Assembly (NCBI RefSeq): GCF_000026545.1 | Contig: NC_011601.1 | Direction: 5' to 3' (one strand) | From: Escherichia coli O127:H6 str. E2348/69 | GTDB taxonomy: Bacteria > Pseudomonadota > Gammaproteobacteria > Enterobacterales > Enterobacteriaceae | Length of the DNA: 64,000 nt | Translations under genes and position numbers: made by a program | Part shown: positions 50,533 through 50,546 of the stretch, one piece after another | Layout of the letters: each line of letters opens with the position of its first letter | How positions within the stretch are numbered: the first letter of the stretch is position 1 | The notes under the pieces: generated by a model | Seen by the model: only the letters and a program-made list of their open reading frames with translations | Told to the model about the DNA's origin: nothing | Database searches by the model: none

Positions 50533-50546
50533 TACATATCGTTACA
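50533..50546 (+). promoter_or_regulatory. RstA-box-like element in the asr promoter region
   Basis: TACATATCGTTACA matches the RstA box consensus TACATNTNGTTACA, about 100 bp upstream of asr. Confidence 0.4.

Follow-up and report, generated by a model that had tools for sequence, protein, structure and literature searches.

An RstA operator in the asr promoter of Escherichia coli E2348/69, its conservation across Enterobacterales and a probable former adjacency of asr and rstAB

The acid-shock gene asr and the two-component system genes rstAB of Escherichia coli O127:H6 strain E2348/69 are encoded on the same strand, with 10.5 kb and ten unrelated genes between asr and rstA. Both are contained in the window, by which we mean the whole 64,000-nucleotide stretch of DNA that was analysed. 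The features of the promoter, the genes and the surrounding region are the following, with promoter positions given relative to a transcription start at 50601.

50531-50546 (+): cross-species operator core TGTACA-N4-GTTACA, from an alignment of 10 species
50533-50546 (+): RstA box TACATATCGTTACA, an exact and unique consensus match inside the published box at -77 to -55, as that interval is quoted in PMC9026648
50551-50570 (+): conserved block GAAACCAACCACTCACGGAA, -50 to -31, with invariant positions at 10/10, into which the Pho box extends with its first half
50562-50579 (+): Pho box CTCACGGAAGTCTGCCAT, -39 to -22, at the position quoted in PMC9026648
50589-50594 (+): -10 hexamer TATAGT, with T1, A2 and T6 invariant across the aligned species
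50601 (+): inferred transcription start, an invariant A 7 nt past the -10, the sole position fitting all published coordinates
50604-50620 (+): 5' hairpin GGCCCC-GCAGU-GGGGUU of the asr mRNA, predicted at -9 kcal/mol
50650-50958 (+): asr, acid-shock periplasmic protein of 102 aa (open reading frame and RefSeq annotation)
51051-51134 (+): samT (ydgU), 27-aa membrane peptide co-transcribed with asr, translation MVGRYRFEFILIILILCALIAARFYLS
61360-61376 (+): PhoP-box-like direct repeat TGTTTAgaaacGATTGA (TGTTTA-gaaac-GATTGA), 57 bp before the ATG of rstA
61433-62152 (+): rstA, response regulator of the OmpR/PhoB family (annotation)
62156-63457 (+): rstB, sensor histidine kinase (open reading frame and annotation), followed by tus
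10393-10406 and 63505-63518 (+): two identical Ter cores GGATGTTGTAACTA, against 0.01 expected by chance

The open reading frames and the annotation agree in placing rstAB at 61433-63457, as the first-pass annotation had it, and its statement that the locus lies near the terminus is borne out by the Ter cores at 10393 and 63505, rstAB lying beside TerB and tus. The two cores have the same orientation, one in the yneE/uxaB spacer and the other in the rstB/tus spacer. The direct repeat upstream of rstA resembles the PhoP consensus and is a candidate input of the PhoQP-RstBA relay. Elsewhere in the window, mgtS is PhoP-regulated, and the PhoP regulon thus appears to be represented by several genes here. 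The Hfq-binding sRNA STnc560 (23451-23664, minus strand, 281.9 bits) is on the other strand from mgtS/mgtT (23362-23561, plus strand). The DNA-binding domain of the encoded RstA is almost the same as the crystallised one and matches the structures 4NHJ and 2MLK with an E value of about 1e-57, and its recognition helix (alpha-3), DRSVDVAISRLRKKL, is identical to that of the crystallised Klebsiella pneumoniae RstA (4NHJ). Asr itself ranges from 80 to 161 aa with the number of its basic repeats; asr is tandemly duplicated, with a samT-like reading frame between the copies, in Mangrovibacter yixingensis (17109-18113 of the fetched locus L015), and a tandem duplication was also found in one metagenome contig (L104). 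Beside mlc, a bioD paralogue (45795-46492, minus strand) is annotated as a frameshifted pseudogene in E2348/69. At the other end of the window, a retron region (1259-6061) contains an msr RNA recognised by Rfam (5529-5593, plus strand, 79.9 bits) just upstream of a reading frame with a reverse transcriptase domain (5660-6061), and beside it an annotated 'ABC-three component system' pair and an AAA ATPase (1259-4663). The region, flanked by a bhsA remnant and by hipBA, has the look of a defence island.

The proposal that started this analysis was that positions 50533-50546 fit the RstA-binding consensus about 100 bp upstream of asr. All 12 specified bases of the consensus TACATNTNGTTACA, which derives from genomic SELEX as cited in PMC4117788, are matched at this site; no other exact match exists in the 64-kb window on either strand, and 100 dinucleotide-preserving shuffles gave none. 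The distance was likewise as proposed, the box starting 117 bp and ending 103 bp 5' of the asr ATG at 50650; rstA is 10,887 bp away from the box. The site remained the only hit when up to two mismatches were allowed, a level at which 4.3 matches are expected by chance, so that near-matches to the consensus are uninformative and the exact match is informative. A weight matrix trained only on asr boxes from outside Escherichia ranked the box first in the window with 22.9 bits, against 8.1 bits for the runner-up and 19.4 bits for the best of 20 shuffles. The match consists of two TACA half-sites arranged as a direct repeat on the same strand, at 50533-36 and 50543-46, with a spacing of 10 bp. The relaxed pattern TACA-N6-TACA was met at four further positions (20996, 23495, 36773 and 55604), all of them within coding sequences (eamA, mgtT, ynfC and pntB), and these were dismissed. 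A full-text literature search for the exact 14-mer returned no match.

Published coordinates of the asr promoter, as far as they are quoted in PMC9026648, put the RstA box at -77 to -55 and the PhoB box at -39 to -22, with a 9-bp spacer running from the PhoB box to the -10 and a wild-type A at both -17 and -13. These coordinates fit the window only if +1 is position 50601, which by the offset between the two sequences corresponds to 1,671,327 of K-12. With this start, the quoted -77 to -55 becomes 50524-50546, the end of the box at 50546 becomes -55, the 14-mer covers -68 to -55 with its centre at -61.5, and the 9-bp spacer TCCCAGGGA occupies 50580-50588 with A50584 at -17 and A50588 at -13. 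The proposed numbering is cross-checked by four independent constraints and uses a published site position that is itself second-hand; by it, the box falls inside the mapped interval as PMC9026648 quotes it, and not elsewhere in the promoter. From the box to the ATG, the promoter of K-12 MG1655 is identical to that of E2348/69, and the K-12 literature is therefore directly applicable. A scan of 50230-51250 for sigma-70 promoters with at least 9 of 12 consensus positions over the -35 and -10 elements found none, which we read as a missing -35 rather than the absence of a promoter; the asr promoter has a -10 without a recognisable -35, as is expected if it is activator-dependent. The GC-rich 5' hairpin lies only 3 nt past the inferred start of the mRNA, and its sequence is kept from Escherichia to Pantoea, with a shorter CCC/GGG form in Yersinia. 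Its stability was not above that of shuffled sequences (z = -0.32), there was little covariation, and no Rfam family was found over the asr leader.

The RstA box of asr is already known, and the match reported here is a correct and ordinary entry in the RstA regulon. In K-12 the box reportedly goes back to the genomic SELEX of Ogasawara et al. in 2007, and the element described here is that same box in an identical promoter, with no difference within E. coli. Functional evidence for it is published: deletion or scrambling of the box abolished RstA binding at the asr promoter in electrophoretic mobility shift assays with strain LF82 (PMC11135836), and purified RstA bound Pasr in DRaCALA and, together with sigma-70 holoenzyme, activated it directly in vitro, while a Pasr-mSc fusion was rstA-dependent at pH 5 (PMC13425233). 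The same work describes asr and samT as one operon, the products of which exert feedback on RstB, SamT being a negative feedback modulator of the kinase (PMC13425233). The DNA-binding domain of K. pneumoniae RstA was crystallised as two winged-helix domains arranged head-to-tail on the asr box of that species (4NHJ, PMC4117788). Both boxes are tandem direct repeats, to be read by an identical recognition helix, but the Klebsiella box is the imperfect pair TACA/TACT with a weak downstream half-site (PMC4117788), whereas that of E. coli has two perfect TACA; the second half-site is accordingly not universal.

Within the species, the 47-bp segment spanning -77 to -31 was found in 5422 of 5426 complete E. 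coli genomes and was at least 99% identical in 5405 of these 5422; among the variants sampled, changes affected the spacer between the Pho box and the -10 or the base after the -10, and never the box. Strain 26561, from bovine mastitis, has an IS1 insertion some 8 bp upstream of the box (corresponding to about 50523 of the window; 1748-2445 of the fetched locus L083), replacing the upstream flank and leaving the RstA box and the promoter intact. For comparison between genera, loci were fetched through PntB, which is encoded between asr and rstAB, and not through the motif. This neutral set comprised the window, E. albertii, two Citrobacter, Superficieibacter, Mangrovibacter, Acerihabitans, Pantoea stewartii and two Yersinia, that is 10 species from 4 families. 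All nine further species had an RstA-box-like site with 0-2 mismatches that started 116-121 bp before the asr ATG. The alignment of the 10 promoters is summarised by segment.

-100 to -71: 47% column identity, equal to background
-70 to -65 and -60 to -55: TGTACA and GTTACA, 12 of 12 positions invariant in 10/10
-64 to -61, between the hexamers: 5-7 of 10
-50 to -31: GAnACCAA-N2-AC-N2-AC-GA invariant (-50 to -32)
-30 to -13: about 53%, equal to background
-10 hexamer: T1, A2 and T6 invariant
+1: A invariant

Conservation thus sets in sharply at -70, and what is kept across genera of the K-12 consensus is only TGTACA-N4-GTTACA; the T at consensus positions 5 and 7 is an Escherichia/Citrobacter feature that is not kept between genera. 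Conserved AC dinucleotides recur at 50534, 50544, 50554 and 50565, at spacings of 10, 10 and 11 bp, which is the half-site pattern of the OmpR family. A second set came from metagenome contigs searched for the 19-base composite TGTACA-N4-GTTACA-N4-GAnACCAA, and this set, being motif-selected, was used only at the positions that the pattern leaves free and is uninformative on the universality of the second half-site. Among the 80 loci retrieved, 75 had asr at +118 to +129 from the motif, three ended before the gene and two were unrelated. At -40 to -31, which was free in the search pattern, ACTCACGGAA was conserved at 0.90-1.0 in 59 unique metagenome promoters. The -10 was located exactly 58 bp from the start of the motif in 77 of 78 asr promoters, and such rigid spacing is a requirement of an activator that depends on the face of the helix.

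These observations bear directly on what else the element could be. Coincidence may be suggested for any short motif, but the conservation data refute a chance match without function, to which we give practically no credence: none of the 100 shuffles produced the site, all 10 species have its half-sites unchanged and at a fixed position, and among the 80 loci retrieved with the motif 75 carry asr at the same distance. A more substantial alternative holds that asr is in truth activated by PhoB, bound to the Pho box at -39 to -22, and that the TACA repeat is accessory or irrelevant. Control of asr by phoBR through a Pho-box-like element was indeed the original description, as cited in PMC13425233 and PMC9026648. 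The geometry of the Pho box is canonical, with two 7-bp repeats 11 bp apart placed upstream of the -10 at a distance of 9-10 bp. The second repeat, CTGCCAT (in E. albertii CTGTCAT), resembles the Pho consensus; measured against CTGTCAT, the first repeat agrees at about 3 of 7 positions and the second at 6 of 7. Against this, Pasr is activated by sigma-70 holoenzyme with purified RstA as the only regulator (PMC13425233), and deletion of the RstA box abolishes RstA binding (PMC11135836). Across the genera the Pho box retains its first half, while the second half (50573-50579) falls to background outside Escherichia (0.49 identity) and the RstA half-sites are invariant. We therefore hold it very improbable that PhoB is the activator with the RstA box as a bystander; control by PhoB may, from the pattern of conservation, be a lineage-specific feature of asr.

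Two further regulators could recognise the same DNA. OmpR is the closest paralogue of RstA and binds half-sites of the GTTACA/GAAAC type, and the asr box contains GTTACA with GAAACC as the next conserved hexamer. At csgD, RstA and OmpR act through the same motif, and the RstA site predicted in PomrB is the OmpR site (PMC13425233). That the box should be mainly or additionally an OmpR operator, making asr responsive to EnvZ-OmpR through the same DNA, is nevertheless improbable in our estimation: in vitro transcription used asr as the RstA-activated and omrB as the OmpR-activated control, and the Pasr-mSc fusion needs rstA at pH 5 (PMC13425233), and no report of OmpR action at asr was found in the literature. 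RcdA presents a comparable case. Genomic SELEX and footprinting (data not shown there) located an RcdA site between ynfM and asr, and an rcdA mutant has less asr mRNA (PMC3535384); GTTTGTACA, which lies just before and inside the box, resembles the RcdA box TTGTnnACA or TTGTnTACA given there (PMC3535384). The element, or the overlapping TTTGTACA, could on these grounds be the RcdA site, with RcdA the relevant activator. The 305-bp ynfM-asr spacer, however, contains no exact TTGTNNACA and no exact match to TTGTnnACA, of which there were six elsewhere in the window against 9.8 expected. Two half-sites at a 10-bp spacing suit a dimer of the OmpR family and not the palindrome of a TetR-type regulator, and the loss of RstA binding on removal of the box is published (PMC11135836), all of which makes the RcdA reading decidedly improbable. 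The RstA and RcdA readings are mutually compatible, and RstA may not be the sole occupant of the site; as co-occupants, neither OmpR nor RcdA displaces RstA.

We are accordingly highly confident that the 14-bp element is the operator of phosphorylated RstA, bound as a head-to-tail dimer centred at -61.5 and activating an asr promoter that has no -35. The proposed course of events is that an RstA~P dimer would bind head-to-tail to the two TACA half-sites, one helical turn apart, and from -61.5 would recruit or stabilise sigma-70 RNA polymerase at a promoter with a good -10 (TATAGT) and no -35. The asr-samT operon would thereby be turned on at acid pH and under PhoQP-inducing conditions, and SamT and Asr would then feed back on RstB. 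The geometry of activation is inferred to be either a class-I-like contact from -61.5 or a tandem array reaching the -35 position. The latter has its precedents in the same regulator family, namely the OmpR sites of ompF and ompC (F1-F3, C1-C3) and the PhoB boxes, with which the asr promoter shares direct repeats phased at 10-11 bp, conserved AC and a weak or missing -35. Its four phased hexamers resemble a two-site array reaching the -35, whereas the published RstA box stops at -55. Since the block from -50 to -31 equals the box in conservation and shares its phase, a second and weaker RstA-dimer site that fills the gap to the -35, as OmpR does at ompF and ompC, was considered; judged from the alignment, this is a tentative proposal that we think somewhat unlikely to be right, and the block may alternatively be a region of polymerase contact.

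The first-pass annotation had also described regulator and target as chromosomally linked, and comparison of gene orders confirmed this and showed that the linkage had been understated, asr adjoining rstAB in other families of the Enterobacterales. The arrangements encountered were the following.

Yersinia and Pantoea stewartii: rstA-rstB-M32 carboxypeptidase-asr(-samT-ydgD)
Acerihabitans (Pectobacteriaceae): rstA-rstB-asr-samT-ydgD, contiguous, with 265 bp from rstB to asr
Hafnia: rstA-rstB-M32 carboxypeptidase at the edge of the locus, with pntB directly abutted by ynfM
Eight metagenome loci: rstB-M32 carboxypeptidase-asr
Enterobacteriaceae: mlc-ynfL-ynfM-[M32 carboxypeptidase-asr-samT-ydgD-mdtIJ-tqsA]-pntBA-...-rstAB-tus

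The order for the Enterobacteriaceae was compiled from Citrobacter, Superficieibacter, Mangrovibacter, E. albertii and about 50 metagenome loci. The series rstA-rstB-(M32 carboxypeptidase)-asr-samT-ydgD is thus found directly in Yersiniaceae, Erwiniaceae and Pectobacteriaceae, and up to the carboxypeptidase in Hafniaceae. The carboxypeptidase, a protein of the M32 type with about 495 aa (HExxH and HPFCGG motifs), is encoded directly 5' of asr in most Enterobacterales, and its gene ends 22-60 bp before the box (15154-16620 in locus L007 and 1273-2760 in locus L046). Escherichia has lost this gene; in its place (50226-50530) there is a 39-aa hydrophobic reading frame of the KPN_01571 family (50275-50394, minus strand). 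In the Enterobacter and Kluyvera loci fetched through pntB, asr was not found within 10 kb of pntB, so the linkage is not universal. From the gene orders, asr was probably once directly beside rstAB, and the 11-kb linkage in E. coli would be a relic of that adjacency. On the simplest reading, the block moved by about 10 kb across pntAB, in the same orientation, to a place between ynfM and pntB in an ancestor of the Enterobacteriaceae, and the RstA operator moved along with the asr-samT block. The paper on SamT (PMC13425233) makes no mention of synteny or of these genera, and a literature search for asr/rstB synteny retrieved nothing relevant, a weak indication that no one has described it. The ancestral adjacency of rstAB and asr may accordingly be unreported and is a modest evolutionary footnote; it is the only new point of this analysis.

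For the biology of E. coli, the RstA box as such adds nothing, and it serves rather as a positive control, in that a real operator was recognisable from sequence alone. Residual value lies in the cross-genus operator, in its promoter-proximal extension and in the ancestral rstAB-asr adjacency. The operator TGTACA-N4-GTTACA, with its constant offset of 58 bp to the -10, is a by-product of the comparison, and the conserved extension from -50 to -31 calls the generality of the Pho box into question. If the array of four half-sites is real, the Pho box would in its first half be part of a promoter-proximal RstA-dimer site and control by PhoB would be an Escherichia-specific add-on. Taken jointly, an asr-samT unit that is an ancient appendage of rstAB and a 40-bp operator of four half-sites (-70 to -31) make up a possible reading, which we rate below an even chance. 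Like two-component systems found beside the genes of their small-protein modulators, RstAB has in asr-samT a unit that is activated by RstA and exerts feedback on RstB; the 10.5 kb that separate this module from rstAB in E. coli mean that the two no longer form a single locus there. The two-component system and the operon that modulates it would then have begun as a single locus, which would offer a rationale for the action of SamT on RstB.
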